From Bacilli bacterium (GTDB lineage: Bacteria; Bacillota_I; Bacilli_A; ML615J-28; CAG-313): 35,011 nucleotides of DNA. The notes under the pieces were generated by a model. It was given only the letters and a program-made list of their open reading frames with translations. It was not told where the DNA came from and did no database searches. Both the position numbers and the translations under genes were made by a program. Where the stretch lies: contig JAZOLP010000183.1 in the NCBI GenBank assembly GCA_045653225.1, forward strand, positions 1-35,011, given 5' to 3'. This document shows, piece by piece, positions 14,158 through 22,562 of the stretch (the first letter of the stretch is position 1; the number at the start of each line of letters is the position of its first letter).

Positions 14158-14469
14158 ATGGGGTATCACTTAAGTGTTTTAGTAGTATATATTTGTTATT
14201 TGTTTTTCTTTTCGCTTATTGCTTTAACTTTATTTTTAATTGATAAATCTCTTTCTAAAAAAGAAGGAAAAAGAAGAATTAAAGAAAAAACATTACTATT
14301 TTTCTGTGTTATTGGTGGTGGAATAGGCGCATATTTTGGAAGAAAAATAGCACATCATAAAACACACAAAATATATTTTTCATTAGTAATTGATTTAACA
14401 CTAATTCTTCAATTAATGATTTTAGGTGCTATGATAACATTTGTTGTGTTCGGCAAGTTTAGTGGGTGA
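14158..14469 (+). CDS. DUF1294 membrane protein
   Basis: IDK...RIKEKTLL...GGGIGA..G...HHKT.K..F pattern; starts 1 nt after the peptidase stop. Confidence 0.85.
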   Translation: MGYHLSVLVVYICYLFFFSLIALTLFLIDKSLSKKEGKRRIKEKTLLFFCVIGGGIGAYFGRKIAHHKTHKIYFSLVIDLTLILQLMILGAMITFVVFGKFSG

Positions 14470-14473
14470 TATT

Positions 14474-14689
14474 ATGGAACAAAAAACATCTTTAGAAAAA
14501 TCACATTCAAAATGGTCTAATTTTAAGTTAACATTATTATGTATTATTATTGCGTTAGCTGATGCGACCATATGGGTATTGATTTGTTTTAAAAACTTTT
14601 TTAGTATAGGTAGATTTATATTATATATTTTAGCTGCGTTTTTTATTTTAGTAGTTTCTTTATTATTATTATTGAAATTTAAACGCTAA
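14474..14689 (+). CDS. small hypothetical membrane protein (71 aa, two hydrophobic helices)
   Basis: GGGTGA RBS then ATG 14474, 4 nt after the DUF1294 stop; two TM-like segments and a basic C-terminus. Confidence 0.6.
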   Translation: MEQKTSLEKSHSKWSNFKLTLLCIIIALADATIWVLICFKNFFSIGRFILYILAAFFILVVSLLLLLKFKR

Positions 14690-14777
14690 AAAAATTATAT
14701 TTTTATAACATTAGACAAATAAATTATGATATAATTTATATATAATTAAAATTAAATTAAGAAATGAGGTTAATAAA

Positions 14778-15329
14778 ATGGCAAAAAGAAAATTAAATAT
14801 GATAGACTTAATGAATTACGCTTGGGAACAAAGAAAAGAAGTTTCAGCTGAAACTTACCAAGATCAATGTAGAAATCTTTTATCTCACGCTTATGCGGAT
14901 TTATCTAGTATGTATTCAAAATATTGTGATAATGAAAATATTAATAATGACGATTTAATCTTCTATACTTTCCAAGAAATCTTTGTATTTATTATGTTAA
15001 GTGATGAAGACTTCTTACAAGGTGAATATGATGCTTATTGTAAATATTGCAGCTTTGCTGGGTTCCAACCTTTATCTGTTGCTGATTGTAAAGCATTATA
15101 TGCACGTAAAACTGTTGAAGATTTAGCAAATGATATTAATTTCTTAAATGATTTAAGAGATGGTATTAATCCAGATAAATATGAAGCTATGGTTCTTGCG
15201 TTCTGTTATCTTTGTCTTCAAGGTGATAAAGCAATGGACGAAAATGAGTATTATATTTTAAGATGCTTCTTTAGTGCTGGGTTCGATTACGCTCCATCTA
15301 CTTGGGAACAATTTAAAAAAGAATGGTAA
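14778..15329 (+). CDS. hypothetical protein, possibly TerB-like
   Basis: own extended -10 (TGATATAAT 14727-14735), GAGGT RBS and terminator; two [S/G]D-x6-E motifs after hydrophobic helices. Confidence 0.6.
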   Translation: MAKRKLNMIDLMNYAWEQRKEVSAETYQDQCRNLLSHAYADLSSMYSKYCDNENINNDDLIFYTFQEIFVFIMLSDEDFLQGEYDAYCKYCSFAGFQPLSVADCKALYARKTVEDLANDINFLNDLRDGINPDKYEAMVLAFCYLCLQGDKAMDENEYYILRCFFSAGFDYAPSTWEQFKKEW

Positions 15330-15335
15330 AAACAT

Positions 15336-15367
15336 AAACTGTTATGATTTTCATAACAGTTTTTTTT
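15336..15367 (+). terminator. intrinsic terminator
   Basis: AAACTGTTATGA/TCATAACAGTTT stem with long T-run. Confidence 0.85.
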
Positions 15368-15375
15368 CACTTTAT

Positions 15376-15430
15376 TTTACAAAATAAGATAAATAGTGTA
15401 TAATAAAACTATAAAACTATTTGTAGTTTT
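15376..15430 (+). promoter_or_regulatory. sigmaA promoter with overlapping inverted-repeat operator
   Basis: TTTACA (15376-15381)-17 bp-TATAAT (15399-15404); AAAACTATAAA-acta-TTTGTAGTTTT (15405-15430, 10/11 symmetric). Confidence 0.65.
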
Positions 15431-15442
15431 TTAGGAGTATAT

Positions 15443-18400
15443 ATGTCATATAAAGAAAATATTATTTTAACTGCCATTGATGTTATCTCAAAAAGAGGTA
15501 ATAATTTTTCAATGGATGAACTTTCATCAATGTTAAAGATGAGTAAACGTACAGTTTATGAAAAAGTAGGAAGCAAAGAAAATCTAATAATTTTATGTCA
15601 AGAATATTTAAAAGAACAATTTGATTTATATTATGATCAAGTAACAAAAAATAAAGAAGTCTGTTTCTTAGATCGTTTTGAAATCTTAATTAATTTCTTT
15701 GGCCAAAATTGGTTTATGACACGTGAAGACCGTGCTATGCTTAATAGAAGTAGCAGTTTGATCAGTAATAAAATTGATGAAGTTAGAAATTATTGTTTAA
15801 ATAAATCATTTGATTATCTTGAACAAAATTATAACAAAGGTCTTACTTTCGCTTATAATCGAGAATTATTTAATTATTTATATTTGAGTGCTTTAATTTC
15901 GTTAAATGAAGATTGTAGAAAAGATCCTACACTAGATTTTAAAAAACAACAATCATTACTTGTAAATAGTTTAATATGTGGTATTGTATCTACTAATTCT
16001 ACTCATATGGGTGGTTCATTACTTCAAAGATTGTTAAGTAGATGTAAAATTGGTTTAATATTATTTAATATTCAAGAAAAAATAAATCCTATCTTTGTTA
16101 GTCCAGGTTATGATGAATTATTTGAAGATATGATTGAAAATGATATATTAACAGAATTTATAGAAAGTTCTAAACAACAAGAAAAATTAAAATCTAATTT
16201 TGCTTCGAGAAAAGAAGTGTCGTTTGACTATGAAATTGATAAAGATGGCAAAACTTCATATTACTCCTTAAAAGCTTTACCTATCAATTGGCAAATGTAT
16301 GATGACGTATATCTTGCTGTTGTTACTGACGTTACTGAAACTAAAAATCGTGAATTACAATTAGAAATTAGCGAAAATAAATTTAATTTAGCTTTAAAAC
16401 AAACATCCCTATATATGTGGGAATATAGTGTTGAAAATCGTTGGTTAATTTTATCAGAATCACTAAAGGATATCTATTCATTTTATGATGATTATATTAT
16501 AGATGTTGCTGGATTCTTTATTGGTAATAAAATTATTCATCCTGATTATACAAAGAAATTTGAAAAATTCTATCGTGGTATTTTAGCTGGTCAAAGAAGT
16601 GGTGAATGCAAAATTAAAATGGTTGATAAATTCGGTAATTTTAAACTATTTAAATTATCCTACAAAACTATTTTTGACTGTAATGATAATCCAATTACTG
16701 CTGTTGGTGTAGTTGTACCAGCAAATATCGGTGTTGAAAATAAGTTTGATCAAGAAGAACAAATGATTTCTTTTTTGAAAAACGAAATAGAATTTGGTTT
16801 TCAATATAATATTGAATCAGAAAAAATTGAAAAGGTATTTGGTACTAGTCCATTAGTGAATAAGTATCAAAATAATTTCTCATTTGAAGGAATTACAAAT
16901 TATTTACTTCAACATATACCAAATGAAAGTGACAAAAATGAAATTTTAAATGTTATGAATAAAAAAGTCATTTATGATTTTGTTCAAGAAAACAGATCTT
17001 ATAATTCAATTTATTTTAGAATTGCTGATGAAAGTGGAAATATTAGTTGGAAAAATTTAATATTTAGAATTATCACAAGACCTGCAGGTGGTGATGACTA
17101 TTTATTTGCATATATTCTAGAAGCTGATAAAAAGCATAAATTAGAATTAAAACTTCCAGAAAAAGTAGAATATGATATTACTACCAAACTATTCGTTAAG
17201 TCTACATTTAAACGTATGGTTAATTTTGCAATAAATGAAGAGTCAATGTCTAATGATTGTGCTTTAATTATTATTGAATGTGTTAACTTATCTACAATCA
17301 AAATGCAGTATGGGTTAAATGTTGCCGAAAAACTTTTAGTTCACTTTAGTAGAGTATTAAAATTATGTTTCTCTAATCAGTCAATTATAGGTTTACTTGA
17401 TGGTAGTAAAATTGGTATTTTCTTCCCTAAAGTTGATAATTTATATGAACTTAGAGACCGTATAAGTGAAGTAATCACATTAATTCATAACTCTTATGTA
17501 TTATCAGATAATGAAGAAAAAATTGCTAAAGTATATTATAGTATTATTGCATCTACATTGGAAAACGCAAATTATCATATTTTGTATGATAAATGTACAA
17601 AACTTCTAGATGAATTAAAACGTCAAGAAGATGAAATTATTACTTATAATGATAATATTGATTATCATATTAACTATTCAAGTCAAGAATATAATTCAAA
17701 TGATACAGTTGTTTATGAAGGTGATGGTACAGTATTAAATGAAATCATAACTTCTTTATATCAAAATATTATTTCTTTAAAAGATCCTTTTGATATAATT
17801 AATGAAACATTAAAACAACTTAACTATTATTATAGTGCTTATAAAACTAGTGTATTTGTTTTAAGTTCAGATAAACAAACTATTAAATTACATAGTGAGT
17901 TTACTATTGGTGATATTTTAAGCTTTGATAAAGTAGAGTATAAGGTTGATGAAATTCCAGGATTATCGTATTGTTCATCAAGACAACAACCAGTAATTAT
18001 TAAAACAAATTATTCTCAAGATGAATTATTATCTAATTATTATTACCATTTAAGATTAAACAATATTAATTTATTCTATGCGATGCCTTTAATTGAAAAA
18101 AATGAAACAGTTGGATTTTTAACAATTTCTAACGCAACAGACCATTTAGGTGAACTTTCATTATTTAAGATATTATCTCAAATCGTTAATAACGAAATAG
18201 TAAAAAAATCTTTAGTTGAAGATAAAAAATTAAATAATCAAGTTGATTTTGTATCAAAATTATATAACTATAATTTCTATAGAACAACTATTTCTAGACT
18301 TAAAAATAGTGCATTATCTAGTCTTGGTGTTGCGTTTATTAAGTTAAATGACTTAAGACAAATGAATATTGATCATGGTAATGAGTACAGTGATAGAATA

Positions 18401-19456
18401 ATTGATAATATCGCAGATATTTTAAGAGAAAAGTTTAGAATGGATTCTATTTTTAGAATTGACAGTGAAATATTTGTTATTTTAATACCTGATATTAATT
18501 ATGAAGCATTTATTGAACGTTTTAATGATGTTGTCAATAACATTAATAACATCGAAATTGGGCTTATAAGTAATGGTCAAACTTGGACTGATACAGATAT
18601 TGATGTTGAGAAATTAATTAATCATGCGGAAGAATTAATGATCATAAATAAAAATCAAAAGAATACTGCTGAGAAATTTGATGTTAAGAATGACAACTTA
18701 AATAATTTAAATGATGCTATAAATAGAAATTGGTTTACTTTCTTCTTACAACCAAAAGTAGATTTATCAACAGGTAAAGTTTCTTCTGCAGAATCATTAG
18801 TAAGAATGGTCCATCCAACATTAGGTGTAATTAGTCCAGCAAAGATTATTCCAATTTTAGAAAAAAATAAAATGGTTAGTTATGTCGATTTCTATATTTT
18901 AGAGCTTGTTTGTCAAACACTTAAAAAATGGAAAGAAGAAGGAAAGAAACTTATTCCAATTTCTGTTAACTATTCTCGTGTAACATTACTTGAAAATGAT
19001 ATAGTTGAAAGAACAAAGAACGTGATTACTAAGTATGACGTTGATGAATCATTGATTGAAATTGAAATAACTGAAACAATCGGAAATATGGAACAAAAAA
19101 CTATTTCTGAACTTGCTGAAAAATTTATCGCAGCAGGAATTAAACTTGCTATTGATGACTTTGGATCCAAATATTCTAGTTTGTCTACTTTATCACTTGT
19201 TCCGTTTAATGTAGTAAAAGTAGATAAATCAATTATTAATGATTTAGTTGTTAATCCTAGATCAAAAATTATTGTTGAACAAATAATTAATATTTGTAAA
19301 GGGTTAAATATGAAGTCTGTTGCAGAAGGTATTGAAACTGAACGCCAATGGGCAGAAGTTAAACGCTTAGGATTTGATTTAGGACAAGGCTATTATTTTG
19401 AAAAACCTATTCCAATCAAAGAATTTGAAGAAAAATTTTTAAAGGATGTAGAGTGA
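15443..19456 (+). CDS. TetR-family domain fused to PAS-like domains, degenerate GGDEF, GAF, degenerate GGDEF and EAL c-di-GMP phosphodiesterase
   Basis: N-terminal FSMDELSSMLKMSKRTVYEKVGSKENL TetR HTH; MWEY...IIHPDY PAS; GGDEF-fold segments with LDGSK and IDSEI; EAL residues QP, AESLVR, SVN, EITE, DDFG..YSS, KVD, EGIET, QGY. Confidence 0.85.
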   Translation: MSYKENIILTAIDVISKRGNNFSMDELSSMLKMSKRTVYEKVGSKENLIILCQEYLKEQFDLYYDQVTKNKEVCFLDRFEILINFFGQNWFMTREDRAMLNRSSSLISNKIDEVRNYCLNKSFDYLEQNYNKGLTFAYNRELFNYLYLSALISLNEDCRKDPTLDFKKQQSLLVNSLICGIVSTNSTHMGGSLLQRLLSRCKIGLILFNIQEKINPIFVSPGYDELFEDMIENDILTEFIESSKQQEKLKSNFASRKEVSFDYEIDKDGKTSYYSLKALPINWQMYDDVYLAVVTDVTETKNRELQLEISENKFNLALKQTSLYMWEYSVENRWLILSESLKDIYSFYDDYIIDVAGFFIGNKIIHPDYTKKFEKFYRGILAGQRSGECKIKMVDKFGNFKLFKLSYKTIFDCNDNPITAVGVVVPANIGVENKFDQEEQMISFLKNEIEFGFQYNIESEKIEKVFGTSPLVNKYQNNFSFEGITNYLLQHIPNESDKNEILNVMNKKVIYDFVQENRSYNSIYFRIADESGNISWKNLIFRIITRPAGGDDYLFAYILEADKKHKLELKLPEKVEYDITTKLFVKSTFKRMVNFAINEESMSNDCALIIIECVNLSTIKMQYGLNVAEKLLVHFSRVLKLCFSNQSIIGLLDGSKIGIFFPKVDNLYELRDRISEVITLIHNSYVLSDNEEKIAKVYYSIIASTLENANYHILYDKCTKLLDELKRQEDEIITYNDNIDYHINYSSQEYNSNDTVVYEGDGTVLNEIITSLYQNIISLKDPFDIINETLKQLNYYYSAYKTSVFVLSSDKQTIKLHSEFTIGDILSFDKVEYKVDEIPGLSYCSSRQQPVIIKTNYSQDELLSNYYYHLRLNNINLFYAMPLIEKNETVGFLTISNATDHLGELSLFKILSQIVNNEIVKKSLVEDKKLNNQVDFVSKLYNYNFYRTTISRLKNSALSSLGVAFIKLNDLRQMNIDHGNEYSDRIIDNIADILREKFRMDSIFRIDSEIFVILIPDINYEAFIERFNDVVNNINNIEIGLISNGQTWTDTDIDVEKLINHAEELMIINKNQKNTAEKFDVKNDNLNNLNDAINRNWFTFFLQPKVDLSTGKVSSAESLVRMVHPTLGVISPAKIIPILEKNKMVSYVDFYILELVCQTLKKWKEEGKKLIPISVNYSRVTLLENDIVERTKNVITKYDVDESLIEIEITETIGNMEQKTISELAEKFIAAGIKLAIDDFGSKYSSLSTLSLVPFNVVKVDKSIINDLVVNPRSKIIVEQIINICKGLNMKSVAEGIETERQWAEVKRLGFDLGQGYYFEKPIPIKEFEEKFLKDVE

Positions 19457-19460
19457 TATT

Positions 19461-21161
19461 ATGGTAAATAAACAAAAAAACTTTTATAGTATTGCTGTTA
19501 TATTCTGTGTTATTGTTTTTGCTGCAATCATTTCTATAATTAGTCTAATAACTAATCCTAATAGTGGTCATGCGACACAGATTGCAACTCCTTTTGAGTT
19601 AAACGAGTCATGGTATGTTGTTGGTGACGATTCAGAAGTTGAATGGGATATGTTGCCTTATTATAATGAATATCGTTTTGAAGAATTCAAACTATATAAC
19701 TATTTACCAAATGATTTAAAAGATAGAAGTTGTATTTATTTAAAAACAAATTATCAATCTATTAAAATTGAAATAGAAGGATATGGAGTTATTTATGATG
19801 AAAAATCTTTTGATAATTTAGTGTTTGGATCTAATGTTAATGTTGTAACTCATTTCATCGAATTAGAACAAGAATATGCTGGTAAGAAAATCATTATTTC
19901 TTCTGATGAAGTTCAAGAATATTTATATCCAACGCTAGAACAGGTTCTTATTGCTGAAAAAGGCGATTTATTGCTAAACTTATTAATGGGAGCTTCAATT
20001 GATTTATTCTTTATTGGTGTAATCATTATTATTGGTTGTTTATTAATTATTTTAGCAATCTTATTAATTAAATATAAATCAGTTAAATATGTTGCGGATT
20101 GTTTCTGTTTAACAATATTTACGTTTATTTTCGCGATATGGATTTTCTCTAATGTTAGTGAATTATATATATTAGTTAATGATAACGCATTCTTCTTCCT
20201 GATATATATTCTCGCACTTTATATGTTGTTGCTACCTATCTATATTTTATTAAGAAATAAATGTACACATTTTATTAAATTATTCGATAGTTTATTTACA
20301 ACAATGGTATGTTTATTATTAAATAATTTAATACTTGCTGGAACTGGTGTGTGGTCACTAACAGAATCAATGATATTACTTCATATTGTAATTGCGATTT
20401 CTTATTCTTTGTGTGTGTTTGCTGTATTTGTTGAATATTTTAAACATAAAAATAGAGATATTTTAGCATATTTAATTTCATCGGTTGTTTTCTTTGTGTG
20501 TATAACATTTACTATTATTGCCTATTACTATCCAAATTTAAAATTAAATATCATTGATTATGATTTCTTCTTAAAATTTGCATTTGTAATATTTGTAATA
20601 TTAAATGGTATTGCATACATTAGACAAGTAATTATTTCTAGTTTAAAAACTAGTGAGTCTGCAATTTATCGTAAACTAGCATTTACTGATTTAATGACTG
20701 GCTTAGATAATAGAAGCTCATTTGATCATGATTTAAACACATTAGCACAAGAAATGTTTGATTATATAAGTATAATTGAATTTGATATTGATGGATTAAA
20801 ATCTGTAAATGATAATTATGGACACTCTGTTGGTGATGAGTTAATCAAAGAAGTTGCTTCTTCAATTAAAGAGATTTTTGGTAAATATAGTAAATGTTAT
20901 AGAATTGGTGGAGATGAATTTATAGTAATCACATTAAATGAAAATTCTACGTTTATTCAAACTTTGATTGATAAATTTAAAGAAGAGATTTCTAATAAGA
21001 TATTATCAAGTGGTTCAAAAATAAATGTATCGATTGGTTCAGCATTTGATGATGGTATTTTAAGTAAATATACTAATCTAACTAATCTGATTAATGTTAC
21101 AGATAGATTGATGTATGAAAATAAAAACATTAATAAAATGAATAATAATTTTGTAGAGTAA
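19461..21161 (+). CDS. membrane-bound diguanylate cyclase (extracellular domain, multi-TM region, GGDEF)
   Basis: TDLMTGLDNR, DIDGLKSVNDNYGHSVGD, RIGGDEF, SIG, ending MYENK; no RxxD I-site. Confidence 0.9.
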   Translation: MVNKQKNFYSIAVIFCVIVFAAIISIISLITNPNSGHATQIATPFELNESWYVVGDDSEVEWDMLPYYNEYRFEEFKLYNYLPNDLKDRSCIYLKTNYQSIKIEIEGYGVIYDEKSFDNLVFGSNVNVVTHFIELEQEYAGKKIIISSDEVQEYLYPTLEQVLIAEKGDLLLNLLMGASIDLFFIGVIIIIGCLLIILAILLIKYKSVKYVADCFCLTIFTFIFAIWIFSNVSELYILVNDNAFFFLIYILALYMLLLPIYILLRNKCTHFIKLFDSLFTTMVCLLLNNLILAGTGVWSLTESMILLHIVIAISYSLCVFAVFVEYFKHKNRDILAYLISSVVFFVCITFTIIAYYYPNLKLNIIDYDFFLKFAFVIFVILNGIAYIRQVIISSLKTSESAIYRKLAFTDLMTGLDNRSSFDHDLNTLAQEMFDYISIIEFDIDGLKSVNDNYGHSVGDELIKEVASSIKEIFGKYSKCYRIGGDEFIVITLNENSTFIQTLIDKFKEEISNKILSSGSKINVSIGSAFDDGILSKYTNLTNLINVTDRLMYENKNINKMNNNFVE

Positions 21162-21184
21162 AGGCTTTTTTACTCTACTTTTTT
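21153..21184 (+). terminator. intrinsic terminator
   Basis: GTAGAGTAAA/TTTACTCTAC stem followed by a T-run. Confidence 0.8.
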
Positions 21185-21264
21185 ATTAAAATTTTGTTAA
21201 TTTTATTGCATATTAAGTGCTAAAAACTTTTTTTTATTATATAATATTAGTACAAAAATATTTA

Positions 21265-21561
21265 AAAACATTGAAAAGAAGAGTAAATAATTAATTTTTT
21301 TATAGAGAGTCTTTGTTGGTGGAAATAAGATATTAAATGATTATTGAACATGGTCTTGGAGTTGGATTGTCGATATTTAGGCTTTCTCGGGTGCTCCCGT
21401 TATAGAGATAGAGTTTACAACTTAAAGTAGAATATTACCACTATTCTTATAACTTTAGGGATTGAACTTGATAAGGGTTAAATCGTGAGGTTTAACTGAA
21501 GAAAGGTGGTAACACGAAGTATATTCGTCCTTTTATTTTAAATAATAAAAGGACTTTTTTT
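21265..21561 (+). promoter_or_regulatory. T-box riboswitch, methionine specifier
   Basis: AGTA, AGAGAG and GGTGGAA stem I motifs; GAAC-ATG specifier (21350-21352); CCCGTTA; T-box AAAGGTGGTAACACG (21502-21516); terminator GTCCTTTTATT/AATAAAAGGAC plus T-run; lies upstream of metNIQ. Confidence 0.92.
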
Positions 21562-21584
21562 ATTAGAAAGGATGGTGTTATTCT

Positions 21585-22562
21585 TTGAGTGATTATCTAT
21601 TAGAAATAAAAAATTTATCAAAGAGTTTCGGAGAACATCGAGTTTTATCTAATATCAACTTAAAAATCAATAAAAAAGATGTTTATGGAATTTTAGGCTT
21701 ATCAGGTGCAGGTAAATCTACTTTAATAAGATGTATAAATGGTCTAGAAAAATTTGATGATGGAGAAATTTTATTTAAAGATAAAATAGTAACATTTGAT
21801 CGTGAATATCGTAAAAATGTTGCGATGATTTTCCAACAATTTAATTTATTAGATCAACGAACAGTTTTAAAAAATGTAGAACTTGCTGGAGAATTATTTA
21901 AAGACTGTAATAGACATGAAAAAGCTATAAAATATTTAAATCTTGTAGGATTGAGTGATAAACTTAATAGTTATCCGTCACAATTATCAGGTGGTCAAAA
22001 ACAAAGAGTTGCAATTGCAAGAGCATTAATGTCAGAACCTGAAATTTTATTATGCGATGAAGCTACTTCAGCACTTGACCCTGATACAACAAATCAAGTA
22101 CTTGCGTTATTAAAAGAACTAAATGAAAAATTAGGACTTACAATTATTATGATTTCACATCAAATGAATGTAATTGAAAAAATTTGTAATAAGGTAGCAA
22201 TTATTGATAATGCGAAAATTGTTGAAAGTGGTGAAACACAAGAGATTTTCTTATATCCAAAAACTGAGATTAGTAAAAAAATTATTTATTCTGGTCATAT
22301 TAATACAAAGAGTGATGATTCTAAATTACTTAAAGTAATATTTAATGGTGAACTTGATATGCCTTTAATTGCAAATATAGTTCAAGATTGTAATATTGTT
22401 TTATCTGTAATTTATGCGGATTCAAAAGTTGTAAATGGGCATGTTTTTGGTCAATTAATATTCAAAATGCCTGCTGATATTAATGATGTTTTAAAACTTC
22501 GTAAATATCTAGAATTAAAGAATATTAACTATAAGGAGGTGGATGCAAGTGAGTTTTTCTGA
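21585..22562 (+). CDS. metN: methionine ABC transporter ATP-binding subunit (TTG start)
   Basis: GLSGAGKS, LSGGQKQR, LCDEATSALDP, C-terminal NIL-like domain; Met T-box upstream. Confidence 0.92.
   Translation: MSDYLLEIKNLSKSFGEHRVLSNINLKINKKDVYGILGLSGAGKSTLIRCINGLEKFDDGEILFKDKIVTFDREYRKNVAMIFQQFNLLDQRTVLKNVELAGELFKDCNRHEKAIKYLNLVGLSDKLNSYPSQLSGGQKQRVAIARALMSEPEILLCDEATSALDPDTTNQVLALLKELNEKLGLTIIMISHQMNVIEKICNKVAIIDNAKIVESGETQEIFLYPKTEISKKIIYSGHINTKSDDSKLLKVIFNGELDMPLIANIVQDCNIVLSVIYADSKVVNGHVFGQLIFKMPADINDVLKLRKYLELKNINYKEVDASEFF

Follow-up and report, generated by a model that had tools for sequence, protein, structure and literature searches.

Passages of the literature on cyclic di-GMP (c-di-GMP) signalling describe two trigger phosphodiesterases (PDEs), PdeR and PdeL, both of Escherichia coli, and ask how general this kind of protein is (PMC12564702, PMC5052742). 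In the parts of three sources that deal with it, PdeL is reported to bind a palindromic region of its own promoter, and its transcription activity to be controlled by c-di-GMP (PMC5052742; bioRxiv 10.1101/2021.10.01.462762; PMC12564702). One passage also lists LtmA, in connection with c-di-GMP, with a 'TetR-type HTH domain' (helix-turn-helix, HTH; PMC12564702). The gene considered here lies in a stretch of 35,011 nucleotides from a Bacilli bacterium (contig JAZOLP010000183.1 of assembly GCA_045653225.1), the whole of which is called the window below, and encodes a long protein in which a predicted TetR unit is joined to sensor modules and a c-di-GMP phosphodiesterase domain of the EAL type.

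Taken as a whole, the explanation that we slightly favour is that this protein, with the architecture TetR-PAS-PAS-PAS-GGDEF-GAF-GGDEF-EAL, would be a trigger PDE acting at its own promoter, its DNA binding, autoregulation and catalysis being things that we infer. The suggestion of a trigger enzyme, made in an earlier note on this DNA drawn up from the letters alone, is in this sense a reasonable hypothesis and not a finding. The term stands for an active PDE that makes direct contact with DNA or a transcription factor, and whose control over this partner depends on c-di-GMP being bound and degraded. The same note knew of no characterised equivalent, and this agrees with the full-text literature, in which no account of a protein uniting a TetR domain with GGDEF or EAL was found, although such an architecture may be catalogued in InterPro/CDART tables or in supplements. 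Text matches to 'TetR' in a sensory census review proved to be 'tetrapyrrole', and those obtained elsewhere include 'tetratricopeptide'.

The fused frame and its TetR unit

The gene as a whole, its TetR unit and the segment that follows are laid out as listed here, with residue numbers referring to the encoded protein and models to AlphaFold2 (AF2), whose local confidence score is pLDDT.

15443-19456, forward strand: whole PDE gene, with an ATG start, 1337 amino acids (aa) and a stop
15443-15592, forward strand: predicted TetR HTH DNA-binding domain, residues 1-50, with recognition helix S34-K35-R36-T37-x-Y39
15593-15985, forward strand: predicted TetR C-terminal all-helical ligand/dimerisation domain, residues 51-181, with AF2 helices from 45-68 to 166-181
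15986-16048, forward strand: probably flexible linker and N-cap helix between the TetR unit and the first PAS unit, residues 182-202, holding Met189; pLDDT below 50 at 182-195 and 197-204

The open reading frame (ORF) contains no internal stop, so that the single uninterrupted frame of 1337 aa noticed earlier stands, and Pfam and NCBIfam return the same coordinates and domain order. That the fusion is real, and the product one polypeptide, is virtually certain from sequence comparisons. When residues 1-420 were compared with proteins of 735-2340 aa, eight matches were obtained, six of which are relatives of 1337-1345 aa with 42-59% identity at 100% query coverage, the remaining two being the query itself and an unrelated 1710-aa PAS protein (E 3.8e-4). 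An exhaustive HMMER search of 1.84 billion representatives with residues 1-200 gave 47 matches, and the long ones among them, the query aside (P0009, P0011, P0012 and P0025), all belong to the same fusion family. P0012 (1340 aa) and P0025 (1333 aa) pass the Pfam cut-off for TetR_N and contain PAS, GGDEF and EAL as well, while P0009 and P0011 are truncated members whose clusters also contain copies of 1340-1345 aa. Cluster sizes range from 1 to 81 sequences, with many full-length copies from separate assemblies, and the high-identity short matches (53-93 aa) among the 47 look like contig-end fragments. Searching longer proteins with the TetR profile led to the same fusion family in 10/10 matches, and in an 11-sequence alignment the entire architecture is alignable end to end, with lowest overall identities of 33-38% (P0012, P0025 and P0108). 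The names given to members in public databases are generic, 'EAL domain-containing protein [Bacilli bacterium]' at NCBI, with 'AcrR' appearing in one JGI name.

An artefact of assembly or annotation that joined separate TetR and PDE genes might come to mind because the window stems from a fragmented metagenome-assembled genome (MAG) of 207 contigs, but this is hardly credible, since numerous assemblies made independently contain this fused frame, at 33-67% identity. No relative without the TetR unit turned up in the homologue searches, nor did a close stand-alone TetR protein in the exhaustive HMMER search with residues 1-200, where the nearest full-size ones have E of at least 1e-7 and 21-27% identity; the relatives keep the same order and length, and no version with TetR and PDE encoded separately was found, which bears out the view of the earlier note that the fusion is genuine and shows it to be conserved. 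The sole candidate for an internal start, Met189, is replaced by Phe in 6/6 close relatives aligned, and its codon at 16007 is, as had been said, not preceded by a purine-rich Shine-Dalgarno (SD) sequence. The TetR-PAS junction, which had been singled out as the place to look for a break, is spanned with 0 gaps by Logan contigs of two runs from different studies, X1 (15842-16260) and X2 (15977-16336), with 2-3 substitutions across it, and no indels are listed in any of the four runs compared over the covered parts of 15200-17200, one of which may be the window's own source sample. An artefactual fusion was rejected on the strength of the full-length relatives, the Phe at position 189 and the gap-free junction contigs.

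There is very little doubt, from sequence and modelled fold, that the N-terminus is a TetR fold and that residues 1-181 form a complete unit, close to the limits of about 1-185 proposed earlier for a full TetR-like unit. Seven family members, combined into a profile over residues 1-204, gave matches to 87 different PDB sequences (E <= 1), with AefR (3cdl, 6.4e-7) at the top. The 60 listed of these are TetR/AcrR-family proteins, a few labelled just 'transcriptional regulator', and several matches span profile positions 3-182. The AF2 model of the unit has nine helices ending at residue 181 (pLDDT 83, predicted TM-score 0.79); the top Foldseek ranks are TetR regulators (FadR, IcaR, SlmA, FasR and DarR), with structures aligning over model residues 1-179/186. 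VIA-align gave Z 15.0 and a root mean square deviation of 3.0 Å over 172 of 187 residues against 3on4, all 50 listed rows being TetR-family, and because unrelated helical bundles can score Z 13-14 the assignment rests on sequence and fold together. TetR_N has E <= 0.01 in 10/11 aligned family members, the exception being the protein of the window (0.019), and lies above the Pfam cut-off in four relatives. NCBIfam has no family for the TetR unit, and residues 1-430 retrieved only PAS clusters from the ESM Atlas, all with scores below 0.9.

How evolution has treated the different parts of the protein can be read from the number of invariant columns over the 11-sequence family alignment.

EAL domain: 72/241 invariant columns (30%)
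HTH, residues 1-50: 12/50 invariant columns (24%), the second most conserved part
TetR ligand/dimerisation domain: 2/135 invariant columns (1%), the least conserved part
Other domains: 6-12% invariant columns

The invariant HTH residues include S34, K35, R36, T37, Y39 and K45, which make up the recognition helix and its flank, and both S-K-R-T-x-Y and K45 stay invariant down to a domain identity of ~25%. A constrained HTH combined with a variable ligand domain is the normal pattern for DNA-binding TetR proteins, and this constraint, which is the strongest argument for it in the analysis, suggests that the head is probably still DNA-binding, something that we predict with fair rather than high confidence. 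Selection for sensing or dimerisation alone is disfavoured because the HTH is far more conserved than the ligand/dimerisation domain, and with only 2/135 columns invariant in the latter a single conserved ligand of the TetR pocket is argued against. Small-molecule sensing by this pocket is the least supported part of what had been inferred earlier.

Enzyme body and sensor modules

The remainder of the protein is made up of the following parts.

18701-19408, forward strand: EAL phosphodiesterase domain, residues 1087-1322, motif ESL (1117-1119); Pfam E 3.9e-61
17168-17629, forward strand: degenerate GGDEF domain 1, residues 576-729, with DGSKI (653-657) at the motif position; Pfam
18239-18664, forward strand: degenerate GGDEF domain 2, residues 933-1074, motif DSEIF (1007-1011); Pfam and alignments to 5m3c and 6zxm
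16049-16330, forward strand: PAS-like unit A, residues ~203-296; AF2, NCBIfam sensory_box at 228-306 (E 7e-7), PAS_9/PAS_3 in relatives
16412-16720, forward strand: PAS-like unit B, residues ~324-426; AF2, Pfam PAS_3 at 363-424 (E 0.003)
16793-17122, forward strand: PAS-like unit C, residues ~451-560; AF2 only, in blocks of pLDDT 70-88
17735-18217, forward strand: GAF-like region, residues ~765-925, with weak support

The EAL domain is predicted from its sequence, with good though not full confidence, to be catalytically active. Its motif reads ESL in the clade of the window and EAL in distant members, and E1117, R1121, N1176, E1208, E1211, D1238, D1239, K1259, E1295, E1298 and Q1315 are invariant in 11/11 members. 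These residues, whose catalytic and metal-binding roles are assigned from work on RocR, TBD1265 and BlrP1, line up with their counterparts in 5m3c, 8arv and 5m1t, so that all positions checked are kept, just as had been claimed for the catalytic residues. There are 38 PDB EAL chains at E <= 1e-10, and the best matches are active PDEs, namely 5m3c (3e-46), 8arv and MucR (5m1t), in a range from 1e-38 to 1e-46, whereas LapD-type receptors score far lower against the EAL query (2.5e-12). In NCBIfam, named phosphodiesterases match just the GGDEF-EAL part, and do so far under their equivalog cut-offs.

Neither GGDEF domain is expected, from its sequence, to synthesise c-di-GMP, the GGDEF fold itself being retained. 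The motif GG[DE]EF is absent from both domains in 11/11 members as read from the alignment, in which the register of domain 1 was inferred. The degeneracy noticed earlier therefore stands; the motif strings given for it (LDGSK at about 650 and IDSEI at about 1005) were one residue off. In domain 2, compared with 5m3c and the active cyclase 6zxm, the DxD position is occupied by K967/N969, GGEEF has become DSEIF and the RxxD position is one residue shorter, with N975 and D984, which correspond to guanine-base contacts in PleD, being retained. GTP is bound by the degenerate GGDEF domain of Caulobacter PdeA, and by analogy domain 2 may possibly bind GTP as well.

The number of PAS segments, put at about three in the earlier note, agrees with an AF2 model of residues 186-575 (pLDDT 70), built from a 4-sequence alignment, which has three beta-alpha-beta units at ~203-296, 324-426 and 451-560 with long helices between them. 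The best Foldseek matches of this block are tandem-PAS proteins (LOV-PAS-HK, DosP, PpsR and FixL; E down to 2e-11). A PAS domain is a five-stranded antiparallel sheet with flanking helices, recognised by sequence or fold. All three units appear in the model; A and B are recognisable by sequence too, PAS_3 being found for unit B in 11/11 members along with a PDB profile match to 3mr0, and unit C, which has no sequence-family match, would be a PAS unit by its model. Residues ~765-925 are weakly supported as a GAF-like region, Pfam detecting GAF in 6/11 members (best 1.5e-5) and GAF_2 in 3/11, with E values for the protein of the window itself of 0.042 (GAF_2) and 0.14 (GAF), and the PDB profile of the region giving only non-significant GAF matches (3p01 and 3ci6, E 0.2-0.3).

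Promoter, palindrome and proposed working

The gene is preceded by a short regulatory region and followed at once by a gene for a predicted diguanylate cyclase (DGC). Three loci of relatives (L004, L024 and L025) provide upstream regions for comparison.

15336-15362, forward strand: intrinsic terminator of the upstream gene, a 12-pair stem followed by a T run, the stem being conserved in L004 and L024
15376-15404, forward strand: sigma-70-type promoter TTTACA-17-TATAAT, 11/12, the best match in 14400-21700
15413-15430, no strand assigned: 18-bp inverted repeat AAAACTA-TTTG-TAGTTTT, a perfect 7-4-7 repeat and a candidate TetR operator or stem-loop of the 5' untranslated region (5'-UTR)
15433-15437, forward strand: SD sequence AGGAG, 5 nt before the ATG
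19461-21161, forward strand: partner cyclase gene for a 566-aa membrane protein, starting 4 nt after the PDE stop
21153-21178, forward strand: intrinsic terminator at the end of the two-gene unit

The number of promoter-like sites in 14400-21700 equals the shuffle mean, and the promoter call therefore rests on position and conservation, the -35 and -10 hexamers and the SD being invariant in 4/4 aligned upstream regions. By its sequence, the terminator at 15336-15362 isolates the PDE gene from the preceding gene, and the promoter, the terminators on both flanks and the 4-nt gap to the DGC gene together point to a PDE-DGC bicistron. Between promoter and ATG (15376-15442 vs 988-1025 of L025) 17/66 positions differ, for PDE proteins that are only 45% identical.

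The inverted repeat, which begins 9 nt after the -10 box and ends 2 nt ahead of the SD, is a tentative candidate for the operator of the fusion protein, on sequence grounds that leave us rather more doubtful than confident. Its counterpart reads AAAACTG-TTTA-GAGTTTT in L004 and L024 and AATACTA-AAAA-TAGTATT, which is perfectly symmetric, in L025, so that the arms are kept in four upstream regions that represent three lineages. Between the window and L025, 2/14 arm positions have changed, and these are mirror partners with complementary changes, along with 4/4 spacer positions; the probability that all four spacer positions are among six changes in 18 is 0.0049 (hypergeometric). The relaxed motif AAAACT-N6-AGTTTT occurs at four sites in the genome, and the promoter site is the only one of them outside an ORF.

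In the working that we propose, the protein would be a parallel dimer held by interfaces of the TetR C-domain, PAS and EAL units, in which the EAL domain would hydrolyse c-di-GMP at a rate set by the PAS and GAF units in response to signals, with the two dead GGDEF domains serving as regulatory or scaffold modules that synthesise no c-di-GMP. The TetR head would bind DNA, the PDE thus doubling as a transcription factor and being a TetR-type counterpart of PdeL. The likeliest target would be its own promoter, at the palindrome between the -10 box and the ribosome-binding site, where binding would lead to negative autoregulation of the PDE-DGC pair, and TetR helix 9 with the linker might relay the state of the enzyme body to the pair of HTH domains, or information might travel in the reverse direction. 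An extended form of this idea, which we consider speculative and improbable as it stands, would make the protein the first TetR-family trigger enzyme in which a DNA-bound repressor is released by c-di-GMP/GTP occupancy and the sensor state of its own body rather than by a pocket ligand, and which, sitting on the promoter of a PDE and a cyclase, would constitute a self-contained c-di-GMP homeostat or switch.

A number of observations speak against a trigger PDE that acts at its own promoter. TetR_N matches residues 7-49 of the protein of the window with E 0.019 and only 15.2 bits, against a Pfam cut-off of 24 (21.3 bits for the same protein in a genome scan), and loop 6 of the EAL domain reads DDFGSKYSS or DDFGSEYSS, a mild departure from DFG(T/A)GYSS, the consensus of active enzymes. 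Much of the rest concerns the palindrome. The innermost arm pair is G/G in L004 and L024, which reduces the symmetry to 6/7; a perfect 7-4-7 repeat is found in 6.3% of shuffles (1261/20000) of this intergenic region of 18% GC, and a 7-7 repeat with any spacer of 0-8 in 35% (1738/5000), there being 618 such 7-4-7 repeats in the genome; the four genome sites of the relaxed motif compare with three for a control, i.e. there is no enrichment. The independent upstream lineages number just three, a further locus (L013) being identical to L004 and not counted, and the palindrome also folds as an RNA hairpin, with -6.8, -8.8 and -8.4 kcal/mol in the three lineages. Moreover, the gene that follows the PDE orthologue in L025 is TrkA-like, so that the DGC partner is not universal, the fusion is rare (2/106 genomes of the order and 1/401 sampled for the class), and no RNA run is among the sequencing runs listed as containing the gene. 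No regulon emerged from the genome-wide search for AAAACT-N6-AGTTTT, nor from the window when up to two mismatches were allowed (3 sites vs 1.7 expected).

The behaviour of the palindrome as RNA lends itself to a different explanation, in which the TetR head does bind DNA but the repeat is a 5'-terminal stem-loop acting on stability or translation of the mRNA, with the operator elsewhere, or in which the PDE is anchored at the nucleoid by its head so as to degrade c-di-GMP locally. We hold this possible, though doubtful. Stem-loops at the 5' end stabilise mRNAs in Firmicutes, outer pairs of the hairpin reach the SD region in L004 and L025, and because the same repeat folds as a 5'-UTR hairpin the compensatory change in the arms is equally well explained by RNA pairing. 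Hairpin z-scores are -1.35, -2.7 and -3.0 for the three lineages, but the stem in the window is A/U-rich and weak, 21/200 shuffles folding as well, and a search limited to this motif, over genome and window, located neither another intergenic copy nor an alternative operator.

Two further explanations each strip the protein of one of its proposed activities. In one of them, the TetR unit would have lost DNA binding and would serve as a dimerisation module or small-molecule sensor that tunes an ordinary multi-sensor PDE. Solved members of the TetR family dimerise through the C-domain and EAL enzymes act as dimers, non-repressor TetR folds such as SlmA are found among the structural matches and the palindrome is not statistically compelling; the contrast between an HTH with 24% and a ligand/dimerisation domain with 1% of invariant columns, together with the invariance of the recognition-helix residues, argues the other way, and we judge such a loss unlikely. 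In the other, which we find distinctly less probable still, the EAL domain would be a silent c-di-GMP receptor like LapD or FimX, and the protein purely a c-di-GMP-responsive transcription factor of the TetR type. Like many GGDEF-EAL proteins of the receptor type, the fusion has no working GGDEF domain by its sequence, and its loop 6 differs from the consensus of active enzymes, but all metal and substrate positions checked are invariant in 11/11 members and active PDEs rank far above LapD-type receptors among the PDB matches. The trigger PDE acting at its own promoter remains, by a narrow preference, the explanation followed below.

Genomic context and relation to known systems

The partner cyclase starts with a signal-anchor and a ~150-residue extracytoplasmic region without family match, followed by a block of several transmembrane segments with a weak match to 7TMR-DISM_7TM (E 0.0013) and a GGDEF domain in which RIGGDEF is intact. 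In L004, a water-deer rectum MAG bearing the name 'Bacilli bacterium', a 59%-identical orthologue is found at the corresponding place.

The gene upstream of the operon (14778-15329, forward strand) encodes a 183-aa protein rich in Cys and Tyr without any Pfam or NCBIfam family. It is more conserved than the PDE, with 80% identity over its last 111 residues between the window and L025, compared with 45% for the PDE, and homologues are 75-76% identical in four other genomes of the genus and 61% in one more. The gene is present in 6/11 genomes of the genus. In one of these (G031, 97% complete) it is followed, at locus L040 (C10:75816-79364), by a gene for a surface protein with Flg_new (the Listeria-Bacteroides repeat), with no PDE-DGC pair. 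A functional tie between the 183-aa protein and the PDE, which synteny might have suggested, was rejected since G031 has the former without the PDE, and the absence of the operon at this place in G031 suggests that the PDE-DGC operon is a variable accessory insert at a conserved locus. Horizontal transfer could not be argued from base composition, the GC contents of the PDE (25.2%) and DGC (24.7%) genes differing too little from that of the window (27.3%) to be of use. Further upstream, an 82-aa ORF with a TTG start (14441-14689, forward strand) is rich in hydrophobic residues and overlaps the end of a DUF1294 gene (14158-14469); a small membrane protein is possible, as is a frame open by chance. 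Rfam has no match on the window at gathering score.

The fusion appears to be confined to a small group of organisms. Among the 106 genomes of the GTDB order, the TetR profile matches at E <= 1e-5 in 11, and the frame exceeds 1300 aa only in two genomes of one genus, that of the window (G000) and G033, the other nine TetR frames measuring 178-218 aa; of 401 class genomes sampled evenly, G000 alone gives a full-length match. A search of genome contigs gave one full-length locus and one of metagenome contigs two full-length or near full-length ones. By these sequence comparisons, the fusion proteins form a small conserved family of uncultured low-GC gut Bacilli.

G000 (1.71 Mb, 28% GC, 91% complete) has a set of c-di-GMP genes and riboswitches consisting of three GGDEF-EAL proteins, two GGDEF-only proteins and two c-di-GMP-I riboswitches, which are located as follows.

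G000:C29:1726-1805 (L034): c-di-GMP-I riboswitch, 68.8 bits, between a GGDEF-EAL gene, which it follows directly, and a 245-aa ORF without family
G000:C29:11655-11735 (L035): c-di-GMP-I riboswitch, 60.3 bits, before a 218-aa ORF without family and a 195-aa ORF of the Peptidase_M73 (camelysin) type

No match to PilZ and no c-di-GMP-II riboswitch was found in this 91%-complete genome, and the two riboswitches are likely c-di-GMP outputs in this organism. TetR_N has two matches in the genome, a 214-aa frame on contig C17 and the fusion, and because the regulatory repertoire is small a fused regulator-enzyme may weigh more here than in larger genomes. If the homeostat described above were to exist, it would be a self-contained c-di-GMP switch at one locus in an organism without a PilZ match.

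Compared with stand-alone TetR regulators, the head of the fusion protein shares with FadR of Bacillus, IcaR and QacR the nine-helix fold, a canonical recognition helix and the length of the unit, at 10-20% identity, whereas its C-terminal helix continues into a signalling enzyme of 1150 residues. LtmA and DarR (c-di-AMP), the latter found among the fold matches, likewise tie a TetR-type HTH to cyclic-dinucleotide signalling, but both are stand-alone nucleotide-binding proteins of ~200 aa that lack an enzyme domain, while the nucleotide part of the fusion protein would be the fused EAL domain. From the side of the enzyme, DosP, RbdA (5xgb) and MucR show the same order of PAS, degenerate GGDEF and active EAL, DosP aligning over query positions 15-399 of the C-terminal 408 residues and ranking high among the fold matches of the PAS block as well, and Caulobacter PdeA is also a PAS-GGDEF(degenerate)-EAL protein. 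Unlike the fusion protein, these four have no DNA-binding domain and no duplicated GGDEF with a GAF-like insert.

Should the trigger reading be true, a conserved TetR-EAL fusion, with an HTH of another class, in a distant Gram-positive lineage would mean that direct links between c-di-GMP turnover and promoter binding evolved at least twice. The well-understood allostery of TetR proteins would here have a fused sensor-enzyme as its driver, acting by way of the C-terminal helix in place of a pocket ligand, which would be of interest for allostery and synthetic biology. With a head that does not bind DNA, less would be left of the finding, namely a PDE of the usual kind whose input domain is uncommon. 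The system is in any case a compact object for experiments, with one protein, one candidate 18-bp site and one two-gene operon.

The closest functional parallel is PdeL (YahA) of E. coli, a protein of 362 aa in which an N-terminal HTH is fused to an active EAL domain, and the analogy drawn with it in the earlier note holds in that both proteins combine an HTH and an EAL domain. The palindrome in its own promoter that passages on PdeL describe (PMC5052742) has a candidate counterpart in front of the fusion gene, whose EAL domain is intact by its sequence. The fusion protein is nonetheless not an orthologue of PdeL and is PdeL-like on paper: judged from their sequences, the two share homology in the EAL domain only, the PdeL structure 7pk5 matching just query positions 163-402 of the C-terminal 408 residues. 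The HTH of PdeL is of the LuxR type and comes without PAS, GAF or GGDEF, in contrast to a full TetR unit separated from the EAL domain by ~900 residues of sensor modules, and PdeL activates from far upstream, whereas the palindrome here would overlap the transcript start, which suggests repression. By this analogy, what is new in the protein of the window would be the DNA-binding trigger-PDE logic of PdeL put under a TetR head, with the EAL domain as the only homologous part.

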